Source: Alphaproteobacteria bacterium (GTDB lineage: Bacteria > Pseudomonadota > Alphaproteobacteria > SP197). Taken from it: a DNA stretch of 64,000 nucleotides. The stretch's first letter is position 1. Each line of letters opens with the position of its first letter. The translations under genes were made by a program, and so were the position numbers. Location: contig OZ219747.1 in NCBI GenBank assembly GCA_964291265.2, positions 4,352,001 through 4,416,000 on the forward strand. Reading direction: 5' to 3'. The notes below the pieces were generated by a model. The model searched no databases and was not told the DNA's origin. It worked only from the letters and a program-made list of their open reading frames with translations. Shown here one piece after another: positions 5,069 to 23,592 of this stretch.

Positions 5069-5442
5069 CACCCCGCGTCGTCGAAACCCTGGAGGAAGCC
5101 CGCACGGCCGTGGCGCAAGCCCGACGGCACGACCGGGAGATCCTGCTTGTTACCGCACCGGGGGCCTGTGCGCGGCTGGGACCGGCCCATCTTCTGGAAA
5201 TGATGCGCCAGGCGGGCGCCGGCACCCTTTCCGTGCGTGCGCTGATCGACTGCGGTCCGGATGCCGGATACGCCATGCTCGCCCTGCGCCTGGGCTGGCG
5301 CGACATTCACCTCAAGGGAGAGTCTTCCATCGTCGCCCGCATCGCCGACATGACCAGAGCGTGCGGCGGCACGTTCCACCACGAACTCCCACCCCTTCAC
5401 GACAGGGGTGAAGCGCCCCTCGCCACCCCTGGCCCGTGCTGA
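5065..5442 (+). CDS. Conserved hypothetical protein following pgk
   Basis: Frame of ORF 4801..5442 from the pgk stop: ...LLVTAPGACARLGP...LIDCGPDAGYAMLALRLG. Resembles the small protein often found after pgk in Rhodospirillales; start codon uncertain. Confidence 0.6.
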   Translation: MTPRVVETLEEARTAVAQARRHDREILLVTAPGACARLGPAHLLEMMRQAGAGTLSVRALIDCGPDAGYAMLALRLGWRDIHLKGESSIVARIADMTRACGGTFHHELPPLHDRGEAPLATPGPC

Positions 5443-5461
5443 CATGAAGTCGGCGGCCCTC

Positions 5462-5817
5462 AACCCGGCCACCGAGTTCACTGCGTACGCGACTTCACCG
5501 GCGACGAGGACCGCTGCAGGATCCATGCCATCTGCCGCGCCGCCTTTCCTGTCCGAGGAACGCCGCCATCGTGCGCTCACGGCGGACACTTTGACTGATC
5601 GGCCAACCGGCATGACGCCGCACGCGCCCGGGACGCACTCGACGCTATCCTCATCCCACCCGGCGAATGAGCCGTTGCTCCTGACCCCGCGCGGAACACC
5701 CGGAACGCGCCTCCGACACAGCGCGACAGGACAGTCGTGCCCGACATCGCGCACAGCAGTGACCACTGAAACCGGCACGCAGAGAACCCGGGTCGCCTTG
5801 AGCATGCCCCGTCCCTG
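5462..5817 (+). mobile_element. ISAs1-family remnant (transposase C-terminus plus element end)
   Basis: Degenerate HCVRDFTGDEDRCR...ANRHDAARARDALDAILIPPGE* (stop 5668-5670); ends in ...gtccctg (5817). Homologous to 15652-16050 in inverted orientation. Confidence 0.75.
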
Positions 5818-5945
5818 CCGCATCAGCGCTCCAGGTCCTGCAATGCAGTGGTCCTGTGCTTGCCGGATTTGACGATATGTGTCTTGCCCTGCATAATTCT
5901 GCTTGGGGCGATAGAGCCTTCCAGTCAATCGATGTCGGTGGAACC

Positions 5946-6160
5946 ATGGTCCCCGAGGAACCTTGGGTCGGGCTCACTGAAGTAGCCGCTCACCAGGGAG
6001 TAGCCAAAGACACGGTTTACCACTGGGTCGAACGCAGGGTATGCCTGCCCACAGCATCGGTCGGTTGTTCCGCTTCGGGCTTTCGCAGGTAGACGGGTGG
6101 GTCGAGAACAACACGGACCATTTGGCGACAAGCCGAAGTCGGGAAGGGCGGACGCCATAG
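5946..6160 (+). pseudogene. Frameshifted excisionase-type HTH (HTH_17/MerR-like) DNA-binding protein
   Basis: MVPEEPWVGLTEVAAHQGVAKDTVYHWVER, then in another frame MPAHSIGRLFRFGLSQVDGWVE; frameshift near 6040. Confidence 0.75.
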
Positions 6161-6178
6161 GACGAAACAATCCACACA

Positions 6179-9100: not shown

Positions 9101-9733
9101 GAAGTGGCCCTTGCCCGACAGCAGGCAGAACAGGGCCTGACCGACCTCGAACGCGCCCGGCAGGAACGCATCACCGGCGTGGACCGCCTCCGCGTAGCCC
9201 GTCACGGCCCGGTACGCCACCTGGCCAGTTGTCTGGTGCTTCCTCCCGACACGGCAATCGACAGCTTCCCTGAACTGGCGGAAGATCAGGATGCACGACT
9301 GAAGCGCCGAATCGAGCTTGCTGCCGAGGACATCGTCGTGGCGCACGAAGAGGCTCATAACCGCGATTGCGAGCGGGTGGGGCATCTCAAGATCGGTTTC
9401 GACATCCGCAGCCTCGCGGCTCCTGACCCACAGACCGGATACCGCGATCCGGTTGACGGCGTCAGGCGCATCGAGGTCAAGGGACGCAGAGCGGGCCACC
9501 CGATCCGGCTTACCACGAACGAGTGGTACAAGGCCCAGCAACTCGGCGACACATACTGGCTCTACGTGGTATGGGACCCGCTCGATAACCCGGACGCCGT
9601 CCCGATAATCATCCGCAACCCCGCCAAGCATCTGGACTACGCAAAGAGGGAGGTCGTTGCCGCGCGCCATTACGACATTCCGGCGAATGCCGTCGAGCAA
9701 GCGGCGCAAGATCTCCAGGAGAGCGCCGCATGA
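6179..9733 (+). CDS. SNF2-family helicase with C-terminal DUF3883 (PD-(D/E)XK-like nuclease) domain
   Basis: LLADDPGAGKT, DEAH, LTATP, ATEAAGEGINLQ, YDLPWNP..LEQRLGRIHRIGQ; C-terminal GFDIRS...IEVKGR...LTTNEW. Confidence 0.92.
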   Translation: MVEHTLAARIGNRVSLPGHFDAPVILEDVRPLGANGSAGCECRVRLPNGELEEAVITPDEAVELLGTEAAREKPASQPVDANRLRLLVESVRIRLAYAYDRQFAVSLSGIRTLPHQLEAVYMKMLPQPRLRFLLADDPGAGKTIMAGLLIKELKLRKAIERCLILVPAPLTIQWQDELLRFFNEPFQIIHSANDQRQLLNLWEREHQVIASIDYAKQDDVRERVWRQRWDIIIIDEAHKCSAYTKRASGREDEIVRTKRYQLAERLSEQCDSLLLLTATPHHGDDDRFAHFIRLLDGDLFPEPHRFGEAAGDIRRDILKLGEDCPWSLRRLKEDLKDMRGRRLFPDRHVQTVSFALGPEEYTIYKAVTAYINEFLPQTTGRRKNSVALARTVFQRRLASSTHAIHESLRRRRKKQNDLLREVEALPPTQRARRLAQLQGRLSDTEQDEDDLDDATRDVLIDEATAAAELDQLRAELAELGDLVARVGRVRESGRDSKLVALRECVQRSEFEELKDGRGKLLLFTEHRDTLDYLREHLEAWGYSTCQIHGGMNPRERKQAQEDFRTSRQICVATEAAGEGINLQFCHLMINYDLPWNPTRLEQRLGRIHRIGQTRDVYAFNFVATSSEDGQPVIEGRILERLLGKLDRMREALGDRVFDVVGEVLSLNKVNLPDMLREVAYEPRRLDDYLDVIDRIDPDLLGKYEEATGIALARGHVDFSAFAQANLEVEERRLMPRYVESHFLSAAKVVGLRTEARADGLWRIEHMRADLRSERLAAVRRLGTPDASYRKLTFYKEHLEQDQHLDAVLLGPGHAVYAAVDEKLNELLHDVMGGTAVYMDSMAAVPYRLHFYEITIRGQTTQGDAMTIHAELAAVREEAAETMAGTERFQVVPADILIDLAEHPHPPEALPGIDFGTVSDYVKTTVQMERRSVARDERSRYAEVTHDYLKKSFDARVRAAQDRVMRLKAREPAEPEVALARQQAEQGLTDLERARQERITGVDRLRVARHGPVRHLASCLVLPPDTAIDSFPELAEDQDARLKRRIELAAEDIVVAHEEAHNRDCERVGHLKIGFDIRSLAAPDPQTGYRDPVDGVRRIEVKGRRAGHPIRLTTNEWYKAQQLGDTYWLYVVWDPLDNPDAVPIIIRNPAKHLDYAKREVVAARHYDIPANAVEQAAQDLQESAA

Positions 9734-12543
9734 CGCCCGATGACCTTCGCCTGATCGAGGACTACCTGCCGCTGGATGTGCTCAATGCCCTCGCGTTGAA
9801 GGAGAAGAAGCATCCCCAGCGCTATGCGGCCCTGATTCACTACTGGCCAGCGCGTCGTCCCACCACGGCATGCCGAGCCTCCATCTACGCCGCATTGGCA
9901 CCGGCACCGCTCACCGATGCCGAACGAGACGAAGCCGCATCCTTCGTAGCGAAGCTCGCCGCCTACAATCCCGATTCCGACACGGTTTCCAAGGCGCGCA
10001 AGAAGATCAGGGAATTGAACGGCGGGCAATCACCCAAGGTCCTCGACATGTTCGCCGGCGGTGGGGCCATTCCACTCGAGGCAGCGCGGTTGGGCTGCGA
10101 GAGTCATGCCGTGGACTACAACCCTGTCGCCCATCTGATCGAGCTCTGTACGCTCGTCTATCCGCAATCCTTCGGCACAAAGCTGGCCGATGACTTCCAG
10201 CGTTGGAGTGTCGTGATCCTGGACCGAATGCGCAATGAGGTCGGCGATCTCTACCAGCCGATCGAGTTGCCGCAGACCGCAGAGACCACTAAGCAGGAAC
10301 CTCAGCCGGGTCAACTTTTCGACAACACCGAGCCCGTATCCGGCACACGCGTCGATCCTGTCGCATACATCTGGGCGCGCACCGTGCCCTGCCGTCACCC
10401 CGGATGTTCTGCTCCCGTCCCGCTGGTCAGGCAGTCGTGGCTGCGGAAGAAGGGCCGCGCTATCGCCGCCGTGCCGCGAATCGAAGACGGCAACCGGCTG
10501 TGCTGGGACATCGTGACCGGCGCCACCGCCCGCGAAGTATCGCAGCACACTGACCAGACCGGCGCCGGCCAGGCGGCCTGCGCGGCCTGCAACACGCCGG
10601 CGCCCGCCGATTACGTCAAGGAAATGGCGGCTGCCGGGCGCATGGGCGAATCGCTCGCCGCCGTCGTGGCCGCGCTGCCGCCGAAGAAGCCGAAGAGCAA
10701 GAGACGCTCCAAGGTCTACCTGCCACCGTATGCCGGGATCTCACTCGCGGTCGGTGATGTCGAGCACCGTCTGAACACTCTTGAGACGGAACTTGGTTTC
10801 ACCCGTCCCGAAGAGGAACTCCAGGGGAAACTGCGTGACCAGTTGCCTGCCTACGGCTTCGAGACTTACCGAAAATTGTTCACGACCCGACAACTGCTTG
10901 TCCTGTTTACCCTCATCAAGCACATTCGACGAGCCCATGCGGAGATGCTCGCAGATGGAATGATAGAGGATCGAGCAAAGGCCTTGGCGACCTTCTTCGC
11001 AATGGCCTTCGGAAGGTTCGTGATCGCGTTCAACAAGTTTTCGCGATGGTATCCGAAATATCAGAGTACAATGGGAGCAATCGGCGATCGCCAGGCCCTC
11101 AAGATGGTGTATGATTTTTCCGAGATCAACGCTCTCGCCAGCACGCAAGGCTGTCTGTCACATGCGTTTGAACGCGAAATCTTCTGCATACGGGAACTGG
11201 CCAAGATCAAGAATTCTTGTGTTGTCACTAGGGGAAACGCCGAGAAGCTCTTCTACGATGACGAGACATTCGACGCGGTGGTCACGGATCCCCCCTATTA
11301 CAGCAGCATCTACTATGCCGACCTGTCGGCCTTCTTCTACGTCTGGCTGAAGCGAATTGTCGGCGACCTCTATCCAGAGCACTTCACGCTTCCAACGCCT
11401 CCCAAGCGTCGCGAGGCCGTGGCACAACCGAGCGAGCACGACGGCGATGCGGAGAAGGCCAAGGCGCACTATGAAAGCACGATGCGCAACTCGCTCGCGG
11501 AAGCCCGGCGGGTGCTGAAGCCGGGAGCGCCCCTGGTGTGCGTTTACGCGCACCGCACGACCGAGGGCTGGGCGACACTGATCCGCGCACTTGTTGGCGC
11601 GGGCATGACCGTCACCGAAGCCTGGCCATTGCAAACCGAAGCACGTGGCCGCGCCAACGCGCTTGATGCCGCCGTACTCTCCGACAGTATTTTCTTCGTC
11701 GCCCGGCGGCGTGAACAGGCCGTCGCTGGACAGTACGAAACGGAAGTCAAGCCACAGCTTGGCCAGATCGCGCGCGAGCGTGTGCGGACCCTGTGGAACG
11801 GCGGCAAGGGCATCGGCGGAGCCGACCTCCTGATGGCAGCCGTCGGTGCCGGTCTGCGCGCCTATACACAGTTTGCCGGGGTTGACTACGCCAACGGCGA
11901 GCCGGTCTCCGCCGAGCAGTATCTGCGCGATGTCGAAGGGGTCGTGCTCGATGTGATCCTCGATGAGATATTCGGCCTTCGGGGCGCGGCGGTCACGGCC
12001 GTCGATTCCATCACCCGGTTCTACATCTTGTGGCGGTTCACCTACCGCGAATCGGCCATCGAGGCGGGTGACGCCTACGTCTTCTGCTACCCGCAAGGAA
12101 TCGAAATAGACGGCCCCGAGGGACTGACAGGCACCGCTCCAAAGCTTGTCGAGAAATCCGGTGGCAAGTTCCGCGTGCGAGACTACATCGAGCGCGGGGA
12201 TGACGAAGCACTTGGCCTCCCTGCGAATGGCAGGGCCGCGCCGCTGGTCGACGTTCTGCACCGACTGCTTTACGTGCTCGAGAAGCGGCCGGCCGCGGTT
12301 CAGGAATATCTTGAAGCAGTCCGCCCGAATGGAGAACAGCTTCGACTTGTTGCGCAAGCGTTATCGGCCCCGGTTCTCGGGCGACCGAACACACCGGACG
12401 CGTCGCCAACTGCCGAACTCGGGGCACTCACTCGGCTCAATGCCAACTGGCGAAGCGTCGTCGAGGGAGCCGCGTATGCGCGTGAAATGGAGTCGTTGGC
12501 AACCGGGCGGCAGGATCTGTTCAGCGGAGACGAATCTCGATGA
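9730..12543 (+). CDS. DUF1156-domain adenine-specific DNA methyltransferase
   Basis: HYWPARRP N-terminal motif, DMFAGGGAIPLEA (SAM motif I), TDPPY (motif IV), two Cys pairs; ATGA overlap with the helicase. Confidence 0.92.
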   Translation: MTPDDLRLIEDYLPLDVLNALALKEKKHPQRYAALIHYWPARRPTTACRASIYAALAPAPLTDAERDEAASFVAKLAAYNPDSDTVSKARKKIRELNGGQSPKVLDMFAGGGAIPLEAARLGCESHAVDYNPVAHLIELCTLVYPQSFGTKLADDFQRWSVVILDRMRNEVGDLYQPIELPQTAETTKQEPQPGQLFDNTEPVSGTRVDPVAYIWARTVPCRHPGCSAPVPLVRQSWLRKKGRAIAAVPRIEDGNRLCWDIVTGATAREVSQHTDQTGAGQAACAACNTPAPADYVKEMAAAGRMGESLAAVVAALPPKKPKSKRRSKVYLPPYAGISLAVGDVEHRLNTLETELGFTRPEEELQGKLRDQLPAYGFETYRKLFTTRQLLVLFTLIKHIRRAHAEMLADGMIEDRAKALATFFAMAFGRFVIAFNKFSRWYPKYQSTMGAIGDRQALKMVYDFSEINALASTQGCLSHAFEREIFCIRELAKIKNSCVVTRGNAEKLFYDDETFDAVVTDPPYYSSIYYADLSAFFYVWLKRIVGDLYPEHFTLPTPPKRREAVAQPSEHDGDAEKAKAHYESTMRNSLAEARRVLKPGAPLVCVYAHRTTEGWATLIRALVGAGMTVTEAWPLQTEARGRANALDAAVLSDSIFFVARRREQAVAGQYETEVKPQLGQIARERVRTLWNGGKGIGGADLLMAAVGAGLRAYTQFAGVDYANGEPVSAEQYLRDVEGVVLDVILDEIFGLRGAAVTAVDSITRFYILWRFTYRESAIEAGDAYVFCYPQGIEIDGPEGLTGTAPKLVEKSGGKFRVRDYIERGDDEALGLPANGRAAPLVDVLHRLLYVLEKRPAAVQEYLEAVRPNGEQLRLVAQALSAPVLGRPNTPDASPTAELGALTRLNANWRSVVEGAAYAREMESLATGRQDLFSGDESR

Positions 12544-15443
12544 GCGCCCATCCCCGCCCCTGGCTGCAGTGCGTTGAGCTTCATCCCGATGTGCTTTCCG
12601 ACGATTTCTCCGAGGATATCTTTGCGCTCGATCTTGGCACCCTGGCTGACTACCTGATCGGCAAGGAGCAGGAGCGGCCCGACCCGGAGCTGAGGCGCGT
12701 CCCGGCGGTGTATCGCGATGCCCGCAGCTTCTTCGACGCTTCGTATCTGACGAGCGGCCTCAAGTCCCTCCTCGAAGATGTGCTCGGACGCCTTTCCGGC
12801 GCCGGAGGCAACCGGGTGCTCAGATTGCAAACGCCCTTCGGTGGCGGCAAGTCTCATACCCTGGCTGCCCTGCTGCACGCAGCCCGAACCCGCGCGGCGC
12901 TCGATGCGCTGCCGGAAGCGGCCGAACTTCCGAGACCGGAGGGTGTGCGCGTCGCGGTCGTCGATGGACAGTTCTTCGACCCGACCAACGGGAAACGAGC
13001 TTCCGGTACAGACATCAACGCGAGGACTCTCTGGGGCTGGGTCGGCTGGGCGCTCGGCGGCCGGCAAGGCTATGACCTGGTGCGCGCACAGGACGAGGCC
13101 CGGGTCGCGCCGGGCGCCGACGCGCTAGTCGAACTGCTCAAGGGCGGGCCGAGCCTGATCCTCCTCGACGAGCTGCTGCAGTATCTCATAAGTGCCGGCG
13201 GAATACGCGTCGAGCAGACCACACTCCGCGACGAGACGTTGTCGTTCCTTCAGCGGTTGACCGCAGCGGTCGGGAGTGTGGACAACGCAGTACTGGTTTA
13301 CTCGCTGCAGTCAAGCAAGCGCGAGTCCCTCGAATACACCAGCCTGCTCCAGACCGTTGAGCATCTGGCGGACCGCAAGGACCAGCGCCGCGAACCGGTG
13401 GAAGGCAATGAGGTCCTCAACGTCATTCAGCGCCGGCTGCTCGCCGGGGTGCCTGATGCGAGGGTGACGAGCACCGTAGCAGACGCCTATGGTGAAAGGT
13501 TCACGCAGATGCACCGCGCCCACGCGCAGGGTGAACCGGAGCGTCTGCAGGCAGAAGACGAAGGTGCCGCGCTGCGTGAACGGATCAAGGCGTCGTATCC
13601 GTTCCACCCCGCCCTGATCGACCTGATGCGTGAGCGCTGGGCAGCCCTTCCGGACTTCCAGCGCACCCGCGGCTCACTGCGTTTCCTGGCCTCCTGCCTC
13701 CGCGCAGCCCACCGCACGGGCGCCTCCGGCTTGCTACTCGGGCCCGGCGACGTTCCCATTCAGGAAAACGATGTGCGCCTTGCCTTCTTCAAGGAGGTCG
13801 GCCAGCGCGAGGACTTCCAGGCGTGCCTGGAGCACGACTTCGTCGGCGCCAACGCGCGCGCCCGCCGCATCGACGACCGGCGCGCCTGGGAAGTCACGGC
13901 CGAGGCAGGAAAGCAACCAGCCTCCCGTCTTGCCACCACCATGCTGCTCTACTCCTTCGGCGGGCTGCGTCGGGGAGAGGGGGAGCACGGCGACCTGCTG
14001 CCACCCGGCATCGGCGAGCCAGAACTGCTCGGCGCGAGCATCGGGCCCGACCTCGACACAACCACCGTCCAGGCTTGCCTCAAGGAGCTCAAGGAGCAAT
14101 GCCTGTACCTGCATTTCGATGGCGTACGCTACTGCTTCAAGAGGGATCCCAACGTCACGTTGCTTGTCGAACAGGAAGCCGATGCCGTCGGCAGGGACGA
14201 AAGTCGAGTTCACGCACGCATCCGCTACATGCTCGAAGAGCGACTTGCCGGACAGCGCGCTATCGTCTGGCCGGGCAAACCGAGCGATGTGCCGGATCGG
14301 GAGCCGCACTTCCAGATCGTCTACCTGCCGCTCGAGTTCGCAGCGCGACCGGACGCCGAGCAGCGCCGCGAGGCGCTCGTGCTGTGCGAGCAGTTCGGCA
14401 ACCGGCAACGCGAATTCCGCAACGGCCTCGGGCTTGCTGTTCCAGCCGCCAATCAGGTTGAAATTTTGCGGCGCAGCGTGCGCTATTTGCTCGCGGTCGA
14501 GCGAGTTCAAGGGAAATGGCGCGAGCACAACCTCACCAACACGCAACGAAGCCAGCTCAAGGAGCGCGGCGCTACGGAGACTGCGGCGACCGAATCCGCG
14601 TTGCTTCGGCTCTATGACGAAGTCTGGTTGCCCGCGGCCGGCGAAAGAAAGCTGACCATCGACTCGGTCAGCCTGGGGGGGCGCCCCCTACAGATCACGC
14701 TCGACGACAAGAAGCGCGCGCTCATTCACCAGCGCCTGATGGAACTGCTGACGAATGTTCAGCGGCGGGTGTTCACAACGGTGGCGCCCGGAAAGCTCGT
14801 CGAGCTCTTCAAGCTAGGTGAGCCAGGCAACCACGCTTCTGGCATTGCCACCGACAAGGTGCTGGCCGGCTTTTTTGAATTCCTCGGATTCCCGCGCATA
14901 CTCTCCGTCGAAGCGGTGCGCAGGGCCGTCGCTCGAGGGGTGGAGACCGGCCTCTTCGGCTTTGTCACCGGGCGCCCTCCACTTGGCGATGATGGCCGTT
15001 ATCGGATCGACCGGAGCCGCGTCGCATTCGAGCGTAGCGTCGCCGACGACGAAATCGATCTCGATTCAGGCTTTCTCATCGTTCCGGAGGCGCTACCGGA
15101 AAAGCCCGCTGCTTCGGGGACAGCGACAGGTGACGGCAACCGTTCTGGCGAAACCGCAGGTAAATCAGGGGTCAGTGGCGGGACCGAAACGAACGGTGTT
15201 GCGGAAAACGATACGACCTCCACCGAGGCTTCCGACGCACGGGGAGTCACCCTGCACTTCACTGCGCGCCAGAGCGATCTGTATGGGGCATGGAACGCCC
15301 TCGGCAACCTCACCGAGGTTGCGGGCGAAGTCACCATTGAAGCCAGAGCCAAGCTGCCAGAAGGCTACGACAGAGCCAAGCTGGAGAACGGGGTGATCGA
15401 GCCACTCCGTGAACTCGGTCTGATTGCGGATGAGAACGGATGA
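12540..15443 (+). CDS. DUF499-family AAA+ ATPase
   Basis: LQTPFGGGKSH Walker A, LILLDE Walker B, SYPFHP, FQRTRGSLR; ATGA overlap with the methylase. Confidence 0.9.
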   Translation: MSAHPRPWLQCVELHPDVLSDDFSEDIFALDLGTLADYLIGKEQERPDPELRRVPAVYRDARSFFDASYLTSGLKSLLEDVLGRLSGAGGNRVLRLQTPFGGGKSHTLAALLHAARTRAALDALPEAAELPRPEGVRVAVVDGQFFDPTNGKRASGTDINARTLWGWVGWALGGRQGYDLVRAQDEARVAPGADALVELLKGGPSLILLDELLQYLISAGGIRVEQTTLRDETLSFLQRLTAAVGSVDNAVLVYSLQSSKRESLEYTSLLQTVEHLADRKDQRREPVEGNEVLNVIQRRLLAGVPDARVTSTVADAYGERFTQMHRAHAQGEPERLQAEDEGAALRERIKASYPFHPALIDLMRERWAALPDFQRTRGSLRFLASCLRAAHRTGASGLLLGPGDVPIQENDVRLAFFKEVGQREDFQACLEHDFVGANARARRIDDRRAWEVTAEAGKQPASRLATTMLLYSFGGLRRGEGEHGDLLPPGIGEPELLGASIGPDLDTTTVQACLKELKEQCLYLHFDGVRYCFKRDPNVTLLVEQEADAVGRDESRVHARIRYMLEERLAGQRAIVWPGKPSDVPDREPHFQIVYLPLEFAARPDAEQRREALVLCEQFGNRQREFRNGLGLAVPAANQVEILRRSVRYLLAVERVQGKWREHNLTNTQRSQLKERGATETAATESALLRLYDEVWLPAAGERKLTIDSVSLGGRPLQITLDDKKRALIHQRLMELLTNVQRRVFTTVAPGKLVELFKLGEPGNHASGIATDKVLAGFFEFLGFPRILSVEAVRRAVARGVETGLFGFVTGRPPLGDDGRYRIDRSRVAFERSVADDEIDLDSGFLIVPEALPEKPAASGTATGDGNRSGETAGKSGVSGGTETNGVAENDTTSTEASDARGVTLHFTARQSDLYGAWNALGNLTEVAGEVTIEARAKLPEGYDRAKLENGVIEPLRELGLIADENG

Positions 15444-15495
15444 TCCTGCCTGCCAGCCGCTACCGCCGATCGAGATCTTCTGGAATGACCGAACC

Positions 15496-15651
15496 ATGAT
15501 ACTCAAGCGACTGCGAAACACGGAGTTTCAAAGCATCCGGGATTCGATGGACTTCAAGACCGGCGAGGTTGCCTGTGTTGTCGGGAAGAATGACGCAGAC
15601 AAGGTCGCGCTGCAGGAACACTTTGTTAACGGGCCTGAAGTTCTGACTTGA
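15496..15651 (+). pseudogene. Truncated N-terminus of an ABC/OLD-family (AAA_15-like) ATPase
   Basis: MILKRLRNTEFQSIRDSMDFKTGEVACVVGKNDADKVAL is a decayed 'vGkNeaGKt' Walker A region; the ORF ends at the IS terminus (15652). Confidence 0.65.
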
Positions 15652-16692
15652 CAGGGACCGAGCATGCTTGAGGCGACCCTTGCTCTCTGTGCACCGGTTT
15701 CAGTGGCCGTTACTGGTGCACCAGAGCTTACACGGCACGCTTATCGGAGCGTTCAAACACAGCTGTCCTGCCACGCTGTTCGGCAGCGCGTTCCCGGTAC
15801 ATCGCGCCGGGCCAGGAGCGACGGTTCATCCGCCGAACGGGATGAGGATGGCGTCGAGTGCGTCCTCGGCGCAGGCGGCGTCATGCCCGTTGGCCTCAGG
15901 CATGTCGTTGACGCGTCCACCGCAGCTCGCGATGGCAACGGTGGCGGTCGTCAGGCAGGAAAGGTGGCGCGACAGATGGCGCACATGGCCCCTGCAACGA
16001 TCCTCGTCACAGGTGAAGTCGCGTACGTAGTGAAGTCGATTTCCATGACCCAACGTTCGCGCACGAGCGCCAGAAGCATCTCGGGTCCGGCGTGTTCAGG
16101 ACAGAACGAGCGCCAGTTCGCCGTGCGCCAGCAGGTTCCAGCGAAGCACGAGACGTTGACGAACGTCCGCCGAGGAAAACCGGATATCCATGTGCGGCTT
16201 CGATGTCGGCGGACAGACGCCGAAGGCTCAGGCCGAGCACACTCAGACGCCGGGTTCGGCGCCCCTCTCAATCCAGGAATGACGAACCGGGAGTTGTTCG
16301 CGATCAGATGCAGTCACCGGAACTGCTGCTCCGTAATCCAGCCGATCCAGCGGTTGCGTGCAGCAAGCTTGAACGCGCCCGGCTGCCAGCCGACCAGCGC
16401 CACCCAGGTCTCGCCGTGCAGGGCGACATGACGCAGGTCCCTTGCGATGATGCCGTGACACCGCGGGTCGTGATGCTCCTTCGCCAGACGGTCCCGAAGC
16501 CAGTGCTCACGTGCGCCACAGCTCGGGCGCACCGTCACCTTGCGAAGGTCGATGGAGAAATTCGGGGTCGCAAGAGTCATCATGACCGGCACACTGCCAC
16601 AGAAAAGATGGTGATTTTGGTTACTTCGAGTCGGTCTTCCGAGCACCCAACGGACTCCCGCATGGGAACTCTGTGCTTGAACAAACATCCTG
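15652..16692 (-). mobile_element. Decayed ISAs1-family element whose transposase has an N-terminal DUF4338 (DruA-like) domain; DDE core deleted
   Basis: WVALVGWQPGAFKLAARNRWIGW, LGLSLRRLSADIEAAHGYPV, FAGTCWRTANWRS joined directly to NRLHYVRDFTCDEDRCR; internal stop at 16314 and frameshifts; terminus cagggacc at 15652; far end approximate. Confidence 0.8.
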
Positions 16693-16714
16693 AAAGGATG
16701 CTTGTTATGGAGAT

Positions 16715-18115
16715 GTGTCCTTGATAGGCGAAGACGTCAAGGCGTTGGCCTCGACGGGCGAGTCCGAGGTGCTGGAGTTCAAGAGCACCACCGGAGCGCG
16801 CCGCGAGGCGGCGGCGACCGTATGTGCCATGCTGAACCAGCGCGGTGGATATGTGCTGTTCGGAGTTGCGCCGGACAGCCGTGTCGTGGGTCAGCGGGTT
16901 GGCGAACGGACAATCGAACAGGTGAGTGCTGAAATTCAGCGGATCGAGCCGCCCGCGTTTCCGGAAATCGAGCGGGTCCGCCTATGGGAGGATTTGGAAG
17001 TCATCGCCGTTCGAGTGAGCCCCGGGTCATCGCCACCGTATCAGTACCGGGGAACCTCCTATCTGCGTGTCGGCAATACCACGCAGACCATGTCCGCCGA
17101 GGAATACAATCGCACGCTTTTCGAACGCATGCACAGCGAACGACGTTGGGAGAACCAGCCCGCCGACGGGTGGACAATAAATGACCTGGACCTCGCAGAG
17201 ATCCGCAATACGGTCGCGGAGGCTGTGCGGATCGGCCGTCTTGACGAGCCCGGTGGCCGGAATGCAGAGGAATTGTTGCGCGGGTTGGGCCTGCTCCGCG
17301 GCGGGAAGCTGTTCCGGGCCGCCGCAGTGTTGTTCGGAAACACGGAGCTCCTCGAGAGTGAAATGCCGCAGTGCCTGCTCCGCGTAGCTCGTTTCCGGGG
17401 TGTTGACCGTTCGGAGTTTCTTGACAACCGTCAGTTCATTGGGAACGTCTTCACCCTGCTCAGGAGTGCCTCGCGCTTTCTGCGTGATACGCTCCCAATC
17501 GCAAGCCGCTTCGAGTCCGGTCACATGGCGCGCATCGACGAACCGCTATACCCTCCTCTTGCTACGCGGGAGGCACTGGCGAACGCCTTGTGTCATCGAG
17601 ATTATGCTATGGGCGGTGGCTCAATTGGGCTGGCAGTCTACGACGACCGACTGGAGGTGACTTCGACCGGTCCACTGCACTTCGGACTGACTCCGGAGGA
17701 TCTCTTCGGGCCGCATGAGTCGCGCCCTTGGAACCCGCTCATCGCCCGCACATTCTATCGGCGCGGCATCATCGAGGAATGGGGTCGGGGCACGATCAAG
17801 ATGGCGAACCTAGCGACCTCGGCCGGGCTACCACGCCCGGAGATCGAGGAACGGGGCAATTGCGTAACTGTGCGCTTCAGGCGCGCCGACTACGTGCCGC
17901 CTCGACACGACGACGGCGAGCTGACGGAACAGCAGAGGACAGTTTTGACGCTTCTACATAGGTCCGATGGCGCTCTGGCGCTCCGGGACATCCGTGCTGT
18001 TCTGGGGTCCCAGGCAAACGAACGGCGACTACGGGAAGATCTAGCCACTCTGAAGACCAAGGAGTTGGTGGAGTCCACCGGGGTGGGCCGGGGAGCACGC
18101 TGGAAACCCCTGTAG
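16715..18115 (+). CDS. AlbA_2/Schlafen-domain protein with HATPase_c_4 ('RecG C-terminal') domain and C-terminal wHTH
   Basis: GESEVLEFKS...CAMLNQRGGYVLFGV, REALANALCHRDY, PWNPLIAR, IEEWGRG, C-terminal GVGRGARW wing. Confidence 0.88.
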   Translation: MSLIGEDVKALASTGESEVLEFKSTTGARREAAATVCAMLNQRGGYVLFGVAPDSRVVGQRVGERTIEQVSAEIQRIEPPAFPEIERVRLWEDLEVIAVRVSPGSSPPYQYRGTSYLRVGNTTQTMSAEEYNRTLFERMHSERRWENQPADGWTINDLDLAEIRNTVAEAVRIGRLDEPGGRNAEELLRGLGLLRGGKLFRAAAVLFGNTELLESEMPQCLLRVARFRGVDRSEFLDNRQFIGNVFTLLRSASRFLRDTLPIASRFESGHMARIDEPLYPPLATREALANALCHRDYAMGGGSIGLAVYDDRLEVTSTGPLHFGLTPEDLFGPHESRPWNPLIARTFYRRGIIEEWGRGTIKMANLATSAGLPRPEIEERGNCVTVRFRRADYVPPRHDDGELTEQQRTVLTLLHRSDGALALRDIRAVLGSQANERRLREDLATLKTKELVESTGVGRGARWKPL

Positions 18116-18139
18116 AACACAGATAAGCGGATCATGTCC

Positions 18140-18169
18140 GGCCTTTCGCGCTGAATGCGGCGAAAGGCC
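18140..18169 (+). terminator. Stem-loop after the AlbA_2 gene (possible terminator)
   Basis: ggcctttcgc-N10-gcgaaaggcc, a perfect 10-bp stem; no U-tract. Confidence 0.4.
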
Positions 18170-18485
18170 CGGGCGCAGCTACGTTACGGTAGCCGAGACA
18201 GCCAAGGAGCAAGTCGCAGAACCGGGTACCCGCCTGACACCGACGCCAGCCACCAGACAAGCCCCTAGCTTCCGGCAAGTACCCGAAGCGCGGGACTTTT
18301 GATTCGAACGCTGAAAACCCTTCGAATGCCATGGTGCCGCTACCAGCTGAGGAGCATGAGTTACCGATGCGTGAGCGTGGTCACGGCAAAGACGTGGATC
18401 TCTGATTGTGAGTGCAGCTGACGATGGCTTGCTCTTCGCATGCGCGGGTAATCGCCGTGGCACAACGCTGGCCGCGGGTTTCTTT

Positions 18486-18515
18486 AATGAGCCAGAATGA
18501 GCCAGAATAAGCCAA
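18486..18515. repeat. Three tandem 10-bp repeats
   Basis: aatgagccag aatgagccag aataagccaa. Confidence 0.8.
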
Positions 18516-18572
18516 CGCCACATCCTGCAGGGGTTTCCAGCGTGCTACCGCATCCGTGTGGACAACGCTTCC

Positions 18573-18770
18573 ATGTTGGTACGCGAGAAGAACGCCCGAG
18601 GCACCGGTGTCTCTGCCTTGTGAAGAGCGGGCGCAAGGGCGGGCGGGAGCGTCAGCGGACGATCCGCGCTCTCGACCGCAAGGACATACTTCAGGCGAGT
18701 AGAGGCTGAGCCGCCTGATCGCCTCGTTTGCGCGCCATTCGGAGCGGTGGTGGTGCTGAAGGACATGGAG
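18573..18770 (+). pseudogene. IS1634-family transposase N-terminal remnant
   Basis: Across frameshifts: MLVREKNARG / HRCLCLVKSGRKGGRERQRTIRALDRKDILQAS / RLIASFARHSER. Matches the IS1634 N-terminal pattern (YLyLVEs.R.GG+vRQr.i..LGR.D). Confidence 0.65.
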
Positions 18771-18791
18771 CCGGGCGGGAATGCAGCAGAC

Positions 18792-18839
18792 TTGACAACA
18801 GTATCGTTGCCAACTATATTGTTGCCAGCAACTGGGTTG
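18792..18839 (+). promoter_or_regulatory. Sigma70 promoter overlaid by three CAAC-N6-GTTG palindromes
   Basis: TTGACA (18792-18797), 17 bp spacer, TATATT (18815-18820); palindromes start at 18796, 18811 and 18826 (15-bp period). Confidence 0.75.
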
Positions 18840-18848
18840 GGTGGAAAC

Positions 18849-20105
18849 ATGATGCGAAAAGGTGGCAGCAACTGGGTCGACGGAGAGAACTTCTTCGACC
18901 GCGAGACTGAGCTCAAAGTACTGGAAGAGCGGGTGCGGGAGAGAACCCACACCCTGGTGACCGCGCAGCGGCGAATGGGCAAGACGAGTCTCGTCCGGGA
19001 GCTACAGCGCCGTTTGGTCGAAGCAGGAGAGTTCGAGGTCGTCTTCGTCGATCTCGAGGCTGCCTTCGATCCGGCCGATGCAATAGCCGAAATCGCGGTT
19101 CAGGCGAGACCGGTACGCACGGCGTGGGATCGGATCAAGGCCGACTCCGCCAATCTCGTGAGGAATGTCGGCGATCTGGTCGAGGAACTGTCGGTTGCAG
19201 ATCGGAAGGTGAAGCTGCGGGCCGGGATCGATGCCGGCAACTGGCAGCAGAGAGGTGACGCGATCTTCGCCGCCCTGGCGGAAAGCGGCCGGCCGGTCGT
19301 GCTCGCGATCGACGAGTTGCCGATACTCGTCAACCGGCTGCTGAAAGACAAGACGGGACGCATGACGCCTGAGGGGAAGCGGACAGCGGAGGCGTTTCTG
19401 AGCTGGCTGCGCAAGGCGGGGCAAGTCCATCAGGACCGGCTCACGCTGATCCTGTCGGGGAGCGTGAGCCTGGAGCCGCTGCTGGAACAGGCCGGACTGA
19501 GCGCCCAGGCCAACATCCTTTCTCCCTATGACCTGAAGCCGTGGAACGAGGAAACGGCCGTTTCCTGCCTGGACGCGCTTGCCAGGTCGTATGAAATCGG
19601 TCTCGCTTTGGAAATCCAGCGGGAGATGTGCCGTAGACTGCGTTGCTGCATCCCGCATCATGTCCAGATGTTCTTCGACAGGATGCACGATCATCTGCGG
19701 CGCGCCGGGCGCAAGGACGCGTCGCTGGAAGATGTGGAACAAGTCTATGTGCGGGAGATGCTGGGCGTTCGGGGACAGGTGGACCTGCAGCATTACGAGA
19801 GCCGGCTGGAGTTGGTCCTCGGGAGGGCCGGCTACACGGTGGCGCTGGAGATTCTGACGGCAACGGCGGTCGACGGCACTATCGCCACTGAAACGGTCGA
19901 CCGGTATCGCAACTGGTTCGCAGTGCGTGAGGTGCAGGATGGAGATGGCACTCTTGCGGTCGACCACGTGCTGCACGTGCTGCAGCACGACGGCTACCTG
20001 GAATCCGGGCACGGCGGTTACAGGTTCGTGTCCGGATTCGTCAAGGACTGGTGGCGCGGGCGCTACGGGCAGGGGTTCGTGCCCGCCTTCGACCGGCAGC
20101 GCTGA
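18849..20105 (+). CDS. P-loop ATPase (archaeal-ATPase/STAND-like) with helical C-terminus
   Basis: FFDRETE, Walker A TAQRRMGKTS, Walker B VLAIDELP, LSGS sensor, IPHHVQ; ATG at 18849 lies just after the promoter. Confidence 0.85.
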   Translation: MMRKGGSNWVDGENFFDRETELKVLEERVRERTHTLVTAQRRMGKTSLVRELQRRLVEAGEFEVVFVDLEAAFDPADAIAEIAVQARPVRTAWDRIKADSANLVRNVGDLVEELSVADRKVKLRAGIDAGNWQQRGDAIFAALAESGRPVVLAIDELPILVNRLLKDKTGRMTPEGKRTAEAFLSWLRKAGQVHQDRLTLILSGSVSLEPLLEQAGLSAQANILSPYDLKPWNEETAVSCLDALARSYEIGLALEIQREMCRRLRCCIPHHVQMFFDRMHDHLRRAGRKDASLEDVEQVYVREMLGVRGQVDLQHYESRLELVLGRAGYTVALEILTATAVDGTIATETVDRYRNWFAVREVQDGDGTLAVDHVLHVLQHDGYLESGHGGYRFVSGFVKDWWRGRYGQGFVPAFDRQR

Positions 20106-20120
20106 GAGGGAATCGGATCG

Positions 20121-23100
20121 GTGGCGGCGGGCCCCAGAAAATACAACCCGGGCTTTCTCTCGATCGACGAACGGGTCGCGACCTTCTGCGTCCGGACGGC
20201 CGAATACGATTCCCTGATCGAGGCGCTGCGCGAGTGCACTGGCAGCGCGAACACCCATCAGATCGTGATCGGACCGCGTGGCTGCGGAAAGACGAGCCTC
20301 CTGCTGCGGGTGGACGCGGAGGTCCTGCGCGATGCCGATCTCTCGATGCGCTTCTTTCCGATCGTCTTCGCGGAGGAAAGCTACGAGGTCTCGACCGCCG
20401 GCGAGTTCTGGCTCGAATGCCTGTCCCGGCTGGCTGACCAGGCGCCGCGCCGGGATGGTGATGTCAACCTGCACCGCACCTTCGAGGAGATGCGCACCAT
20501 CCAGGACGACCGGGCGTTGGAGGGCCGGTGCCTCGGCGTGCTACAGGATTTTGCCGACCGGGAAAACAAGCGCCTCGTGCTGATCGTCGAGAACCTGAAC
20601 ATGATGTTCAGGGACATGGGCGACGACGACGCGGGCTGGCGGATGCGGAAGGTGCTGCAGACCGAACCGCGGATCGTTCTGCTGGCAAGCGCGACAAGCC
20701 GGTTCGAGCAGATGGACGATCCGAAAGAAGCGCTCTACGAGCTCTTCCGGGTGATCCCGTTGCATCCGCTCGACACGGAAGACTGCGCGACCCTGTGGCA
20801 AACCATATCGGGGCAGGCGCGGGCGCCACAGACGATCCAGGCTTTGCGGATTCTCACGGGCGGCAACCCTAGGCTGCTGACGATCGTGGCCCGGTTCGGC
20901 GCGTATCTGTCGTTCCGCGAGCTGATGGCCGATCTTCTCGATCTGGTCGATGACCATACCGAGTATTTCAAGAGCCACCTCGATGCGCTCCCCGCGCAGG
21001 AGCGGAAGGTGTATCTCGCCCTCGCTGCCCTGTGGAAACCGGCAAATGCGCGCGAGATCGCGGAGCGGGCCAGGCTCGGCACCAGCAAGTGCAGTGCCCA
21101 GTTGGCCCGTCTCATCGACAGGGGCGCGGTCGAGGTGAGCGGCGGCAGCGCGCGACGCAAGCTCTATTATCTGACCGAACGGCTCTACAACATCTACTAC
21201 CTGATGCGCCGGGCGCACGGACCGGAGCCGCTGATCGACGCGCTGATCCGTTTCATGGAGGCATATTATTCCACCGATCAGTTGCGGGACTTCGGGGCCC
21301 GCGTGGCGCGTGAAGCGCCGGGGTTCGACGGGAATGCGTTGGCGATCTACCGGATCGCATTCGAGCGTCTTGTCAGACTTCCGTCCCTGGAGGCACACCG
21401 CGAAGAACTGCTTTCTCTTGCGCCGCCTGACTTGGCGCATGCGCCCGGTGAGTCTTCTCCGGAGTCCCCCATTGCACCGTCGGCCGCGAGGGAACTCTTC
21501 GAGAATGCACTGGCGCTCGCGGAAAACGATAGGTTGGAGGAGGCCGTGGCGGCTTGGGACGAGGTCGTCCGGACGTTCTGGGAGAGTGATGCAGCGACGG
21601 ATCTCGAGCACGTGTCGATGGCGCTCGTCAACAAGGGAAAGGCGTTGAGCAGGCTCGGGAGGGCAGAAGAAGCGCTGGCAGCCTGGAACGAGACCGCTCG
21701 ACGTTTCGACAAGAGTCGGGTGCCGGCGCTTGAGGTAGCCGTGGTGAACGCGCTGCATGGGAAGGCGATCGCGCTCAACACATTGAACCGGCACCGGGAA
21801 GCTATGGAGACTTGCGACGAAGTGCTGGAACGCGTCGGTAACAGCAGTTCGCCGGCACTTCAGGGAGAATTGGCGGCAGCGATGGTCGAACGGGGTCACG
21901 CGCTGATCTTGCTGAACCACGCCGACGAGGCCATGGATGCCTGGGGCGCCGTGGTGGAACGTTTCGGAAGGAGCGACTCTCCCAGAATCGTCGAACCGGT
22001 AGCCGCGACCTTCGCCAACATCGGCACGGGCCTCCTTCAGTCGGGCCGATTGAAGGAGGCGCTCGCCGCGTTCGAAAGGGCCATGCAGAGCTGCAAGGCA
22101 AGCGATACGCCGATCCTTCGACAAGTGACAGCGCACTGTTTCGCCAACAGAGGCCACGTGCTGGCTGCGTTGGAGAGGGAAACGGAAGCACTCTCGTCCT
22201 GGGAAGAAGTGATCAGGGGCTTCGAGGCGGGCGGTTTCCCGGATGGAGCAGAACCGTATTGCGACGCGCTGACCAACAGTGCGGCTGTGCTGCACAACGC
22301 CGGCAGGTACGAGGAAGCCCTGCAGCTGTGGGGCAAGGTGGCGGAACGCTTCGAGGACAACAACGAGCCCGTCATCCTTGCCATGGTTGCGAATGCCGAG
22401 AGGAACAGGGGCATCTTGTTGGAACGGTTGGACCGTTACGAAGAGGCGCTCGCGGTCTGGCAGCAGGTCGAAGACCGCTTCGGAAACAGTGACATGCCGG
22501 AGTGGGTCACGCTGGCCGCAATCTCCTTTCAGCACAAATGCACCATCCTGTTCGAACTGAACCGGAAGGAAGAGGCGCTCGAAACCTGTGACCGGGCGAT
22601 CGATCTCTTGGGAAAGAGTATCGTGCCGGGAGTTGTCGATACGGTCGCACAGATTCTCCTCGGCAAGGGTATCGTACTCGATACTGCGCAGAGGAACCAA
22701 GAGGCGCTGGCGGTCTGGGACGAGGTTATCCAGCGCTTCGAAGCGAGCGATGTGCTTGCGCTTCGCGACGCGGCGGAAGCCGCACTGTGCAGCCGGGCGC
22801 AGCACGAATTGACAGAAGGCCGCACAAGGGCTGCTCTTGGATTTCTCGACCGAGCGCTGCAGCAGGGGCGAGCGGGAACTCCGGACAGCAGAGTGCGGGG
22901 TCATTTGATCCGGGCCCGTGGGCACCTGGCGGAAGGCGATGGCGAATCGGGTGCCCGTGATGTCGAGACGGCACTGTCGATCCTCCCTGAACTGGAAGTG
23001 CTGCCGAGGGACTTGGTGGTGGATCTGGCCGATCTTTCCAGGTGCGTTGGACCGGAGAGGATGTGCGATCTGATCAAGTCGTCGCCCGTCGGCGATCTCC

Positions 23101-23213
23101 TGCTTCCGTTGAGGACGGCGCTTGAACGGGAACTCGGGTTGGAGCCGAGGGTGGCTAGGGAAGTCGAAGAGATTGCCGAAGACATACGTCGGGAATTGCT
23201 CACCCCTCCGTAA
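20121..23213 (+). CDS. STAND-like ATPase - winged HTH - TPR repeat protein
   Basis: Walker A GPRGCGKTS, variant Walker B LIVENL, GGNPRLL, wHTH AREIAERARL...SAQLARLIDRGAV, then about 11 repeats of 43 aa (EEAlaaWdev..rF..sd.p.l...va.al.nkg..L..lgR). Confidence 0.88.
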   Translation: MAAGPRKYNPGFLSIDERVATFCVRTAEYDSLIEALRECTGSANTHQIVIGPRGCGKTSLLLRVDAEVLRDADLSMRFFPIVFAEESYEVSTAGEFWLECLSRLADQAPRRDGDVNLHRTFEEMRTIQDDRALEGRCLGVLQDFADRENKRLVLIVENLNMMFRDMGDDDAGWRMRKVLQTEPRIVLLASATSRFEQMDDPKEALYELFRVIPLHPLDTEDCATLWQTISGQARAPQTIQALRILTGGNPRLLTIVARFGAYLSFRELMADLLDLVDDHTEYFKSHLDALPAQERKVYLALAALWKPANAREIAERARLGTSKCSAQLARLIDRGAVEVSGGSARRKLYYLTERLYNIYYLMRRAHGPEPLIDALIRFMEAYYSTDQLRDFGARVAREAPGFDGNALAIYRIAFERLVRLPSLEAHREELLSLAPPDLAHAPGESSPESPIAPSAARELFENALALAENDRLEEAVAAWDEVVRTFWESDAATDLEHVSMALVNKGKALSRLGRAEEALAAWNETARRFDKSRVPALEVAVVNALHGKAIALNTLNRHREAMETCDEVLERVGNSSSPALQGELAAAMVERGHALILLNHADEAMDAWGAVVERFGRSDSPRIVEPVAATFANIGTGLLQSGRLKEALAAFERAMQSCKASDTPILRQVTAHCFANRGHVLAALERETEALSSWEEVIRGFEAGGFPDGAEPYCDALTNSAAVLHNAGRYEEALQLWGKVAERFEDNNEPVILAMVANAERNRGILLERLDRYEEALAVWQQVEDRFGNSDMPEWVTLAAISFQHKCTILFELNRKEEALETCDRAIDLLGKSIVPGVVDTVAQILLGKGIVLDTAQRNQEALAVWDEVIQRFEASDVLALRDAAEAALCSRAQHELTEGRTRAALGFLDRALQQGRAGTPDSRVRGHLIRARGHLAEGDGESGARDVETALSILPELEVLPRDLVVDLADLSRCVGPERMCDLIKSSPVGDLLLPLRTALERELGLEPRVAREVEEIAEDIRRELLTPP

Positions 23214-23592
23214 CCGTTCGGTCAAGCCGTGGAACCCTCGGACCCGTACAGGAGATCAGGAAAAACGGCCTGGGTTTCCGGTAAGGGTGATCGTTCGCGA
23301 CCGCCACTCGGCCAAACCGTCACGGCTTCACCGAAAGGAGTCCGATTTCCCGGCAAGCGCAGCGAGAACGCGAGCGTGCCAATCGGATCACAAGCACCCG
23401 AGTTCTTGTCTCGATGGATGATTGCGGATTCCATGGCCCCAATCCGGGGGACTTCAATAGTGGCGTCATACATCCAGTTATGTCACACATACCTCGAATG
23501 GAAGAACCTGGCAGGGATGCCGAAACGGGCGCGCCGTGGTGAGTCGCTTGCTTGCCACGGAAATCATCATCGGATCATGGGCTCATGTGATC

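Follow-up and report, generated by a model that had tools for sequence, protein, structure and literature searches.

The locus lies in a window of 64,000 nt, that is, the whole stretch of DNA analysed (contig OZ219747.1 of assembly GCA_964291265.2, Alphaproteobacteria bacterium, SP197; positions 4,352,001-4,416,000 of the forward strand), and all coordinates are those of the window. Two genes, A and B, encode proteins of 418 aa and, from a GTG start, 1030 aa, respectively. Their features and surroundings are listed in Table 1. The accessory island that holds them is considered real, because the distance between pgk and efp is 18.6 kb here and 1.1-3.7 kb in 5/5 relatives. These data agree with an earlier note on this DNA, which had described co-oriented genes 15 nt apart inside an accessory island.

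Table 1. Features of the A-B locus and its surroundings in the window.
Feature	Position	Strand	Remarks
Accessory insert	5440-23565	none	pgk region to efp, about 18 kb; holds Hma, the AlbA_2 gene and the A-B cassette
HmaA-HmaB-HmaC defence system	6179-15443	+	PADLOC E 2e-184, 6e-103 and 7e-95; neighbour, outside the cassette
Schlafen/AlbA_2 + HATPase_c_4 gene	16715-18115	+	Pfam; neighbour, not conserved as a partner
Sigma-70-type promoter	18792-18820	+	-35 TTGACA 18792-18797; 17 bp; -10 TATATT 18815-18820
Operator array (putative)	18795-18840	none	three palindromic CAAC-N6-GTTG with a 15-bp period: 18795-18810, 18810-18825, 18825-18840
Gene A	18849-20105	+	bare STAND/Orc1-like ATPase: NBD, helical domain, WHD; no added domain
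Gene B	20121-23213	+	15 nt after A
B ATPase and helical domain	20121-20960	+	aa 1-280; includes the A-linked residues R176, F195, Y206 and R210
B winged helix	20961-21215	+	aa 281-365; highest conservation within the cassette; presumed to bind the operator; TrmB E 5.5e-7
B TPR-like repeats	21483-22862	+	aa 455-914; 11 repeats of about 43 aa; candidate sensor; number and sequence vary
B C-terminal cap	22863-23213	+	all-helical, conserved, common to solo-B relatives

Protein A carries the motifs AQRRMGKTS and AIDE, and was assigned to ATPase_2 and AAA_22 by Pfam. The residues G44, K45, T46, D155 and E156 were invariant in an alignment of 40 rows, and the GxP position of the helical domain reads IPHH. 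The closest folds to the structure model of A (pLDDT 86) were two archaeal ATPases of the MJ/MNS type, PAB2304 (2QEN) and Sso1545 (2FNA), with TM values of 0.60-0.61 at only 16-17% identity, followed by Orc1/Cdc6. The latter shows that an AAA+ winged helix can bind DNA repeats, also as a heterodimer (2QBY). We know of no TPR partner or defence link for any of these proteins. No known toxic domain was found in A by Pfam, NCBIfam, PADLOC or the fold search. Pfam, the alignment and the model all agree with the view that A is a stand-alone ATPase, as had been proposed.

Protein B carries the motifs GPRGCGKT, IVEN and GGNP, and Pfam recognized AAA_16, a TrmB-type winged helix at residues 293-350 and TPR families. 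The AlphaFold2 model (mean pLDDT 85) resolved residues 455-914 into 11 helix pairs, each about 43 aa long, followed by the all-helical cap, and the repeats are visible in the DNA with a spacing of 129 nt. The architecture described in the earlier note, namely an ATPase, GGNP and about 11 TPR-like repeats of 43 aa, is thus supported by both Pfam and the model. The winged HTH of that description is present, but it is the ordinary WHD subdomain of a STAND protein and not an extra domain: in both A and B the order is P-loop NBD, helical domain with GxP (GGNP in B), winged helix. The Walker B motif of B, which had been called a variant, does read IVEN, but it is not damaged, because E157 and N158 are invariant in 36/36 aligned relatives, as are G56 and K57. 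Judged from their sequences, the Walker A and B motifs of both proteins are intact.

Neither A nor B showed an enzyme domain in Pfam, NCBIfam, PADLOC or the structure models, so that the supposed lack of an effector held. Both ATPase domains begin about 15-25 residues from the N-terminus. An enzyme concealed in the C-terminus of B was considered and rejected, since this region is all-helical in the model and the atlas matches score below 0.9. In 25 close pairs, identity was 93.5% in the winged helix, 87% in the B ATPase, 81% in A and 67% in the TPR array. Conservation is thus lowest in the TPR array, as expected if this region is highly variable, and the differences in the length of B among relatives fall near multiples of 43 aa.

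The promoter ahead of A-B reads TTGACA-17-TATATT and matches at 11/12 bases, in line with the strong promoter reported earlier; the looser threshold of the promoter scan corresponded to 1.1 matches per shuffle. TTGAC recurs at the -35 position in most relatives. Over this promoter lie three palindromes that the earlier note had missed, and these are likely to be operators bound by a protein, judging from their arrangement and conservation. The second unit has the -10 box as its spacer, and the third unit extends to the ribosome-binding site, so that the array overlaps the -35, the -10 and the start region. In 78/80 loci it was kept, with no more than 3 of 22 positions mismatched, and each of 1921 control windows had at least 6 mismatches of 22. 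In a distant clade (L114 and L115), CAAA-N6-TTTG was read by eye; both half-sites are altered and the 15-bp period is retained. No site of at least 13 bits was found at the second-clade A-B locus L319 or the distant A-B locus L318.

The array is unique in the 4.8-Mb genome, scoring 46 bits here versus 11 at the next-best site, and a wider regulon in the same genome was therefore rejected. The operator scan of viral contigs gave 23 matches, none of them near A or B and many in coding sequence. In metagenomes, 7/120 matches precede A, and the remainder are mainly coding repeats, pentapeptide-type or other. A few intergenic matches in the metagenomes had no explanation.

Some relatives of B occur without A. 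In a quick tree, these solo Bs form a clade (support 100) nested in a clade of 36 rows (support 100) whose other members are linked to A, and they retain both the operator and the winged helix. The solo clade comprises roughly 600 proteins, and the genomic context covers six of its loci, which represent three independent arrangements of one lineage. In 6/6 of them, solo B stands head-to-head with an anti-phage operon, either a Pycsar operon (E1-E2, with or without JAB and TIR) or a 6A-MBL operon scoring above the NCBIfam cut-offs, and operator sites of at least 13 bits lie only in the gap to this divergent operon. A was found in none of the three solo-B genomes that are 99-100% complete, and the control genome was matched. 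In the same three genomes the operator pattern matched only beside B, with a pattern that was composed after viewing the solo sites and that failed to detect the A-B operators in G004 and G013 (1 and 7 unrelated matches). Searches for the solo clade gave none in 350 and 200 genomes of two families, and a few in two further families (2 in 351 genomes, 1 in 201). Cultured strains of Sphingobium and of the Brevundimonas type carry solo versions next to systems that are well studied.

B is likely an operator-binding repressor, because solo B keeps the operator and the winged helix in a head-to-head position with Pycsar or 6A-MBL operons. The earlier note had suggested that the TPR region controls DNA binding by the winged helix, and the conserved operator together with the solo-B relatives backs this branch of its proposal. 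An entirely different function of the DNA repeats, in which A and B would be an initiator pair like Orc1/Cdc6 and the array a replication origin of a mobile element, is suggested by the rank of Orc1/Cdc6 directly after the archaeal Walker ATPases in the fold search with A. We regard this as very improbable, since the array covers a promoter, the solo form adjoins defence operons, no replication or transfer gene is conserved among the called neighbours of A-B, and A had no match among 50,697 phage records. In viral contigs, one B-like match was seen, which was weak and partial.

Cap-type repressors (CapW/BrxR, CapH with CapP, CapK with CapS) regulate CBASS, Pycsar, BREX and similar operons, according to the available part of PMC13373217. 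They are adjacent winged-helix or HTH repressors of an immune operon, and solo B fills the same genomic slot: as read from the DNA, an HTH regulator stands beside an immune operon with a putative operator in the shared promoter. In the window, the predicted controlled operon is A-B itself. The Cap sensors, in contrast, are triggered by single-stranded DNA and consist of WYL, peptidase or kinase modules, as far as the same part of PMC13373217 describes them, whereas B has a STAND ATPase with a variable TPR array and would usually control a second ATPase. Pfam matched no WYL, CapP peptidase or CapK kinase sensor in A or B. By analogy, the role of B is likely CapW-like, with an NLR-like sensor. 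MalT and AfsR are STAND activators with a separate DNA-binding domain of the LuxR or OmpR type; they resemble B in that a nucleotide switch and a TPR-like sensor govern transcription, but B appears to repress by its own WHD. The Cap repressors are already known; what is new is a subclade of B without A, with an operator, beside anti-phage operons.

The linkage of A and B that had been predicted is fully conserved: B follows A in 80/80 best loci. The cassette is patchy, being present in 10/22 genomes of the same genus versus 0/10 in other genera of the family, and identities above 80% occur across phyla. In contigs of four runs we noticed many divergent copies and a few joints within the repeat array, a signal too weak to count.

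Most of the 80 best loci belong to uncultured marine-type MAGs, one of them titled 'Spongia', and the cassette is most abundant in marine-invertebrate-type symbionts. Genomes of such symbionts are rich in eukaryote-like repeat proteins, and ankyrin, WD40 and LDL-repeat genes are among the neighbours of A-B. The known Cap repressors, moreover, respond to DNA damage (PMC13373217, in the part available). These observations could mean that the cassette senses a signal of the host animal or of stress and not a phage. We consider this distinctly unlikely. MAGs from groundwater and other non-symbiont MAGs also carry relatives, as do plasmids of Moraxella, Clostridium and Methylomonas; no obvious signal peptide was seen, and the solo relatives adjoin anti-phage operons.

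PADLOC genes were near 8/20 A-B loci versus 6/19 control windows (p 0.74), so that the suggested defence-island enrichment was not significant; mobile-element or TA genes were near 12/20 versus 5/18 (p 0.058), also not significant. The other expectation, that no named system would match, was borne out, since the best PADLOC matches were weak (mad8, E 2e-5 and 2e-4) and NCBIfam gave nothing near a cut-off. The lack of significant enrichment, together with the missing effector domains, the missing regulon, the lack of a conserved third gene among 975 called neighbours, and several copies that are frameshifted or interrupted, would suit a mobile module that regulates itself and produces no output. 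In such a module B would repress and A would be only a co-repressor or nucleotide switch; the module would sometimes lose A and be captured by real defence operons as their regulator. We judge this rather unlikely: both Walker A motifs and the Walker B of A are invariant or nearly so, A persists in many phyla even where identity has fallen to about 25%, and it is difficult to see why the sensor would change so fast if no output were under selection.

On the predicted arginine-finger face of B lie R176, F195, Y206 and R210. Of 33 A-linked Bs, 88-100% retain each of these residues, versus 0-7% of 40 solo-clade Bs, a loss that counts as a single evolutionary event. A carries S225 where B has R210. 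Because these residues were lost together with A, an A-B heteromer is suggested, and the heteromeric two-ATPase switch of the earlier note is supported to this extent. The complex prediction of A with B(1-430) scored 0.23 versus a mark of 0.32 and was counted neither for nor against binding.

The contact indicated by this co-loss, and the STAND-TPR architecture shared with Avs (PMC13581612, in the part accessible), could also mean that A-B is a direct receptor complex, in which B senses a phage protein and nucleates a cell-killing A-B ring while autorepression only sets the dose and is not itself the switch. The accessible part of PMC13581612 gives Avs/AVAST an NTPase-WHD core, a C-terminal TPR-like sensor and horizontal spread, all as in A-B; A-B, however, has no N-terminal or fused effector and possesses a second bare ATPase, the WHD of B appears to bind an operator, and PADLOC found no Avs match for A or B. 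A precedent for a mobile operon of two STAND modules is nSTAND2, whose modules are expected to assemble as a hetero-oligomer; of its two NTPases, one is inactive and carries a fused GT4 or HEPN effector (PMC8195603, in the part available), whereas in A-B both P-loops are intact, the effector is absent and a TPR array and an operator are present. We think that the direct receptor complex is improbable, since the effector is absent, solo B seems to work without A, and the most conserved part is the winged helix and not a ring surface.

Taking these results together, the best explanation as a whole, to which we give roughly an even chance, is that the NLR-like B represses the shared promoter through the operators until a ligand releases it and A-B is turned on. 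B would sit on the three palindromes and act as a repressor, which has good support, and a ligand caught by the variable repeats would free B and turn on the genes under its control, which at this locus are A and B. With moderate support, B would dock on A and insert an arginine finger into its ATP site. We speculate, on weaker grounds, that the ligand may be a phage protein and that defence may be exerted by the induced A-B oligomer, in the simplest case by arresting growth through ATP consumption. We suggest tentatively, at somewhat under an even chance, that B represents a class of immune regulator that has not been described before, in which NLR-like receptor and repressor are one and the same protein. 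It would read a phage protein and free whatever defence cargo stands under its operator (Pycsar, 6A-MBL, or the effector-less executioner A, activated in trans by the arginine finger of B). The literature searched, mostly without subscription papers, described neither the A-B pair nor a STAND-TPR repressor beside Pycsar or 6A-MBL; PMC13581612 distinguishes 589 STAND clades, and its clade tables, which lay outside the part compared, may list these clades.

Known NLR-like receptors of bacteria act by turning on a fused enzyme. The described regulators of anti-phage operons that we found respond to DNA damage, according to the available part of PMC13373217. If the proposed mechanism is true, pattern recognition would be wired straight to the transcription of defence genes, joining NLR-like sensing with operon repression, and B would be a new type of sensor-controlled switch for bacterial immunity. 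The idea is readily testable, because each base of the operator is known and some cultured strains carry a solo version. It would also offer a handle on effector-less STAND proteins, and A-B may be a bacterial counterpart of sensor-helper NLR pairs.

Genes A and B lie in the same orientation, 15 nt apart, exactly where the earlier note had placed them. In the Pfam search, A was an ATPase_2/AAA_22 protein, and B consisted of an AAA_16 ATPase, a TrmB-type winged helix (residues 293-350) and TPRs. For the predicted model of A (pLDDT 86), the nearest structures were PAB2304 and Sso1545, two archaeal ATPases, followed by Orc1/Cdc6. In that of B (pLDDT 85), an NBD, a helical domain and the winged helix are followed by 11 helix pairs, each of about 43 aa, and a helical cap. 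The model of B contained no enzyme-like domain, in agreement with the earlier note, which had recognised no effector in B. The same note knew of no named system that fits the pair, and PADLOC gave only weak matches to mad8 (E 2e-5 and 2e-4), while no score in the NCBIfam scan was close to a cut-off. By profile comparison (E 1.8e-5), A and B are distant paralogues.

Features of the window around the A-B pair
Feature	Position	Remark
Degenerate long inverted repeats	5473-5856 / 15613-16038	flank the Hma genes; resemble a composite element's pair of insertion-sequence remnants
DruA-like fragment	16314-16688	
25-nt inverted repeat (92%)	18091-18115 / 18525-18549	end of the AlbA_2 gene and spacer ahead of A-B
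Operator array	18795-18840	CAAC-N6-GTTG palindromes, 15-bp period, immediately 5' of A
Gene A	18849-20105	418 aa
Gene B	20121-23213	1030 aa

The Walker A and Walker B residues were invariant in the aligned sequences (40 of A and 36 of B), and the IVEN Walker B of B is thus a family trait. When 25 close pairs were compared with the window, the winged helix was the most similar part (93.5% identity), ahead of the B ATPase (87%), A (81%), the cap (79%) and the repeats (67%). In addition, the lengths of the repeat region of 62 full-length Bs grouped near whole multiples of 43 aa. The TPR region is the most variable of the parts compared, as the earlier note had considered. A Mycobacterium plasmid (locus L183, 4854-6023) encodes a protein like the ATPase and winged helix of B, with no repeats (24% identity).

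In the operator array, the -35 box overlaps unit 1, unit 2 has the -10 box as its spacer, and unit 3 reaches the ribosome-binding site. The 22-base consensus was matched with at most three mismatches in 78 of 80 loci, and the best of 1921 control windows had 6 mismatches; in the two other loci the array was displaced upstream (L017) or degenerate (L072). A genome scan found the array only once in 4.8 Mb, and there is therefore no regulon. Inspection by eye showed the CAAC-N6-GTTG unit in 5/5 inspected loci of a second A-B clade (about 40% identity), and CAAA-N6-TTTG with the same 15-bp period in the two loci of a third. No operator site rose above the threshold in a further locus of the second clade or in one distant locus. 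Distant A-B pairs (L177, L179, L182, L174-L176) have other palindromic repeats 5' of A, such as AACTATA..TATAGTT in Moraxella, which suggests co-evolution of the operator with the winged helix throughout the family. CAAC-N6-GTTG arrays with neither gene nearby were also seen in viral contigs (L081, L088, L089, L096, L102) and metagenomes (L192, L204, L225, L246, L250, L256), several of them intergenic or close to gene starts; they may have arisen by chance, may serve a different regulator or may mimic the operator.

A was present in 10 of 22 genomes of the same genus, in 0/10 others of the family, 0/28 of the class and 3/400 sampled from the phylum. A protein search gave 2020 relatives among 8000 scored. 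The best 80 of 171 genomic loci came from Alphaproteobacteria, Gammaproteobacteria, Acidobacteriota, Chloroflexota, Latescibacterota and others, often with identity above 80% across these groups, and B directly followed A in all 80, which confirms the conserved linkage. The order was the same in 15/15 genus loci, some repeating loci already counted, and in more distant pairs, including those of about 25% identity on Moraxella, Clostridium and Methylomonas plasmids. The neighbours included no conserved third gene. One distant Moraxella plasmid pair adjoins Qat, a second-clade cassette (L319, 2456-5038) adjoins a partial EruA-like NACHT anti-phage gene, and L063 (8436-17415) has two tandem cassettes that belong to different clades and have separate operators.

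A search of plasmids with B gave 10 records, of which three, at 38-42% identity, had no match to A. Such a solo B stood head-to-head with a cyclase operon on two Agrobacterium plasmids and one Sphingobium plasmid; according to PADLOC, this divergent operon encodes Pycsar cyclases and E1-E2, to which the Sphingobium operon adds JAB and PycTIR. The solo clade had 606 matches, many from cultured Alphaproteobacteria. Among 1,103 genomes of four families we found three further solo-B loci; two share the Sphingobium layout and one faces a 6A-MBL operon, which exceeded the NCBIfam cut-offs (402 vs 220 and 572 vs 320). In all six loci, which represent three independent arrangements of one lineage, operator sites of at least 13 bits, the threshold used, were confined to the stretch separating B from the divergent operon. 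A was not found in the three whole solo-B genomes (99-100% complete), while the control genome matched. A pattern built from the solo-B sites matched only beside B in these three genomes; in two other genomes it failed to match the A-B operators and gave 1 and 7 stray matches. A quick 44-row tree placed the solo clade (support 100) inside a 36-row clade (support 100), the rest of which was A-linked. The operator thus goes with B rather than with A. The earlier proposal that the TPRs control DNA binding by the winged helix gains from the operator accompanying B even without A; the DNA binding itself we infer. In the Sphingomonad-type loci L180 (895-5413), L316 and L317, two Pycsar-type systems surround solo B, with an E1-E2/JAB/TIR operon upstream and divergent, and a cyclase and 2TM pair downstream and convergent.

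The 33 A-linked Bs compared share 126 conserved positions. In 40 solo-clade Bs, 102 of these were still conserved, including both basic and signature positions in the winged helix, and 19 were lost, including R176, F195, Y206 and R210. In AAA+ proteins, the segment ahead of strand 5 bears an arginine finger facing the neighbouring subunit. A carries serine at the position aligned with R210. The comparison suggests that B completes the ATP site of A in an A-B heteromer, of the kind proposed in the earlier note. The loss is a single evolutionary event, with the context known for a minority of the 40 solo-clade proteins.

In the window, HmaABC and an AlbA_2 gene lie upstream of the single-copy A-B pair, and efp lies downstream. 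The distance between the bordering genes pgk and efp is 18.6 kb, vs 1.1-3.7 kb in 5/5 relatives, to which similarity stops near 5440 and 23565. Around 18485-18549, near the 25-nt inverted repeat, the contigs of related strains diverge. The same genome has a second Hma-type system (L158, G000:C2:250001-260000) with an embedded PDC-M07A/HEC-01-like gene, and about ten 101-nt 'tRNA-Arg(acg)' calls by aragorn, dispersed along chromosome G000 C2, probably represent a mobile or structured element present in several copies.

The enrichment sample came from a pool of 40 control windows and 50 dereplicated loci whose flanks were complete. In the Pfam scan, 12 of 20 loci vs 5 of 18 controls had mobile-element or toxin-antitoxin genes within 5 kb (p 0.058). 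PADLOC, run on a different 20 loci and 19 controls, with ABC-type and partial cross-matches to mad3 and MzaA set aside, gave 8/20 vs 6/19 (p 0.74). The defence-island enrichment considered in the earlier note did not reach significance in this small sample, from hosts that are defence-rich throughout. The defence case rests on the neighbours of solo B, the variable sensor, the patchy spread and the location beside Hma.

We propose that, in the resting state, the promoter is very probably covered by B, probably dimeric or together with A. By analogy with Avs sensors, we slightly favour a next step in which a ligand on the repeats would flip the STAND switch and free the operator. The output would be Pycsar or 6A-MBL at solo-B loci and more A and B in the window, where the effector might conceivably be an A-B oligomer, in the simplest case through ATP consumption. 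We give the whole chain, from promoter-covering B through ligand release to output, an even chance; its main rival is an A-B module that regulates itself, has no output and is sometimes captured by defence operons.

CapW/BrxR, CapH+CapP and CapK+CapS control adjacent immune operons on DNA damage (PMC13373217); B would work as they do, but without their sensors. The build of B is like that of an Avs receptor (PMC13581612), but B has no effector and is therefore not an Avs member. The nSTAND2 operon is a precedent for two STAND proteins, with a partner that is inactive and effector-fused (PMC8195603). E1/E2-linked Pycsar-like loci with WYL regulators are described in a preprint (10.64898/2026.08.12.744502), the accessible sections of which make no mention of a STAND repressor there. 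In mostly non-subscription literature, the clade tables of PMC13581612 aside, we found no published description of the A-B pair or solo B. In conclusion, the system is real and, in the literature covered, undescribed; it would join two known kinds of protein, the Cap-type regulator and the Avs-type receptor.
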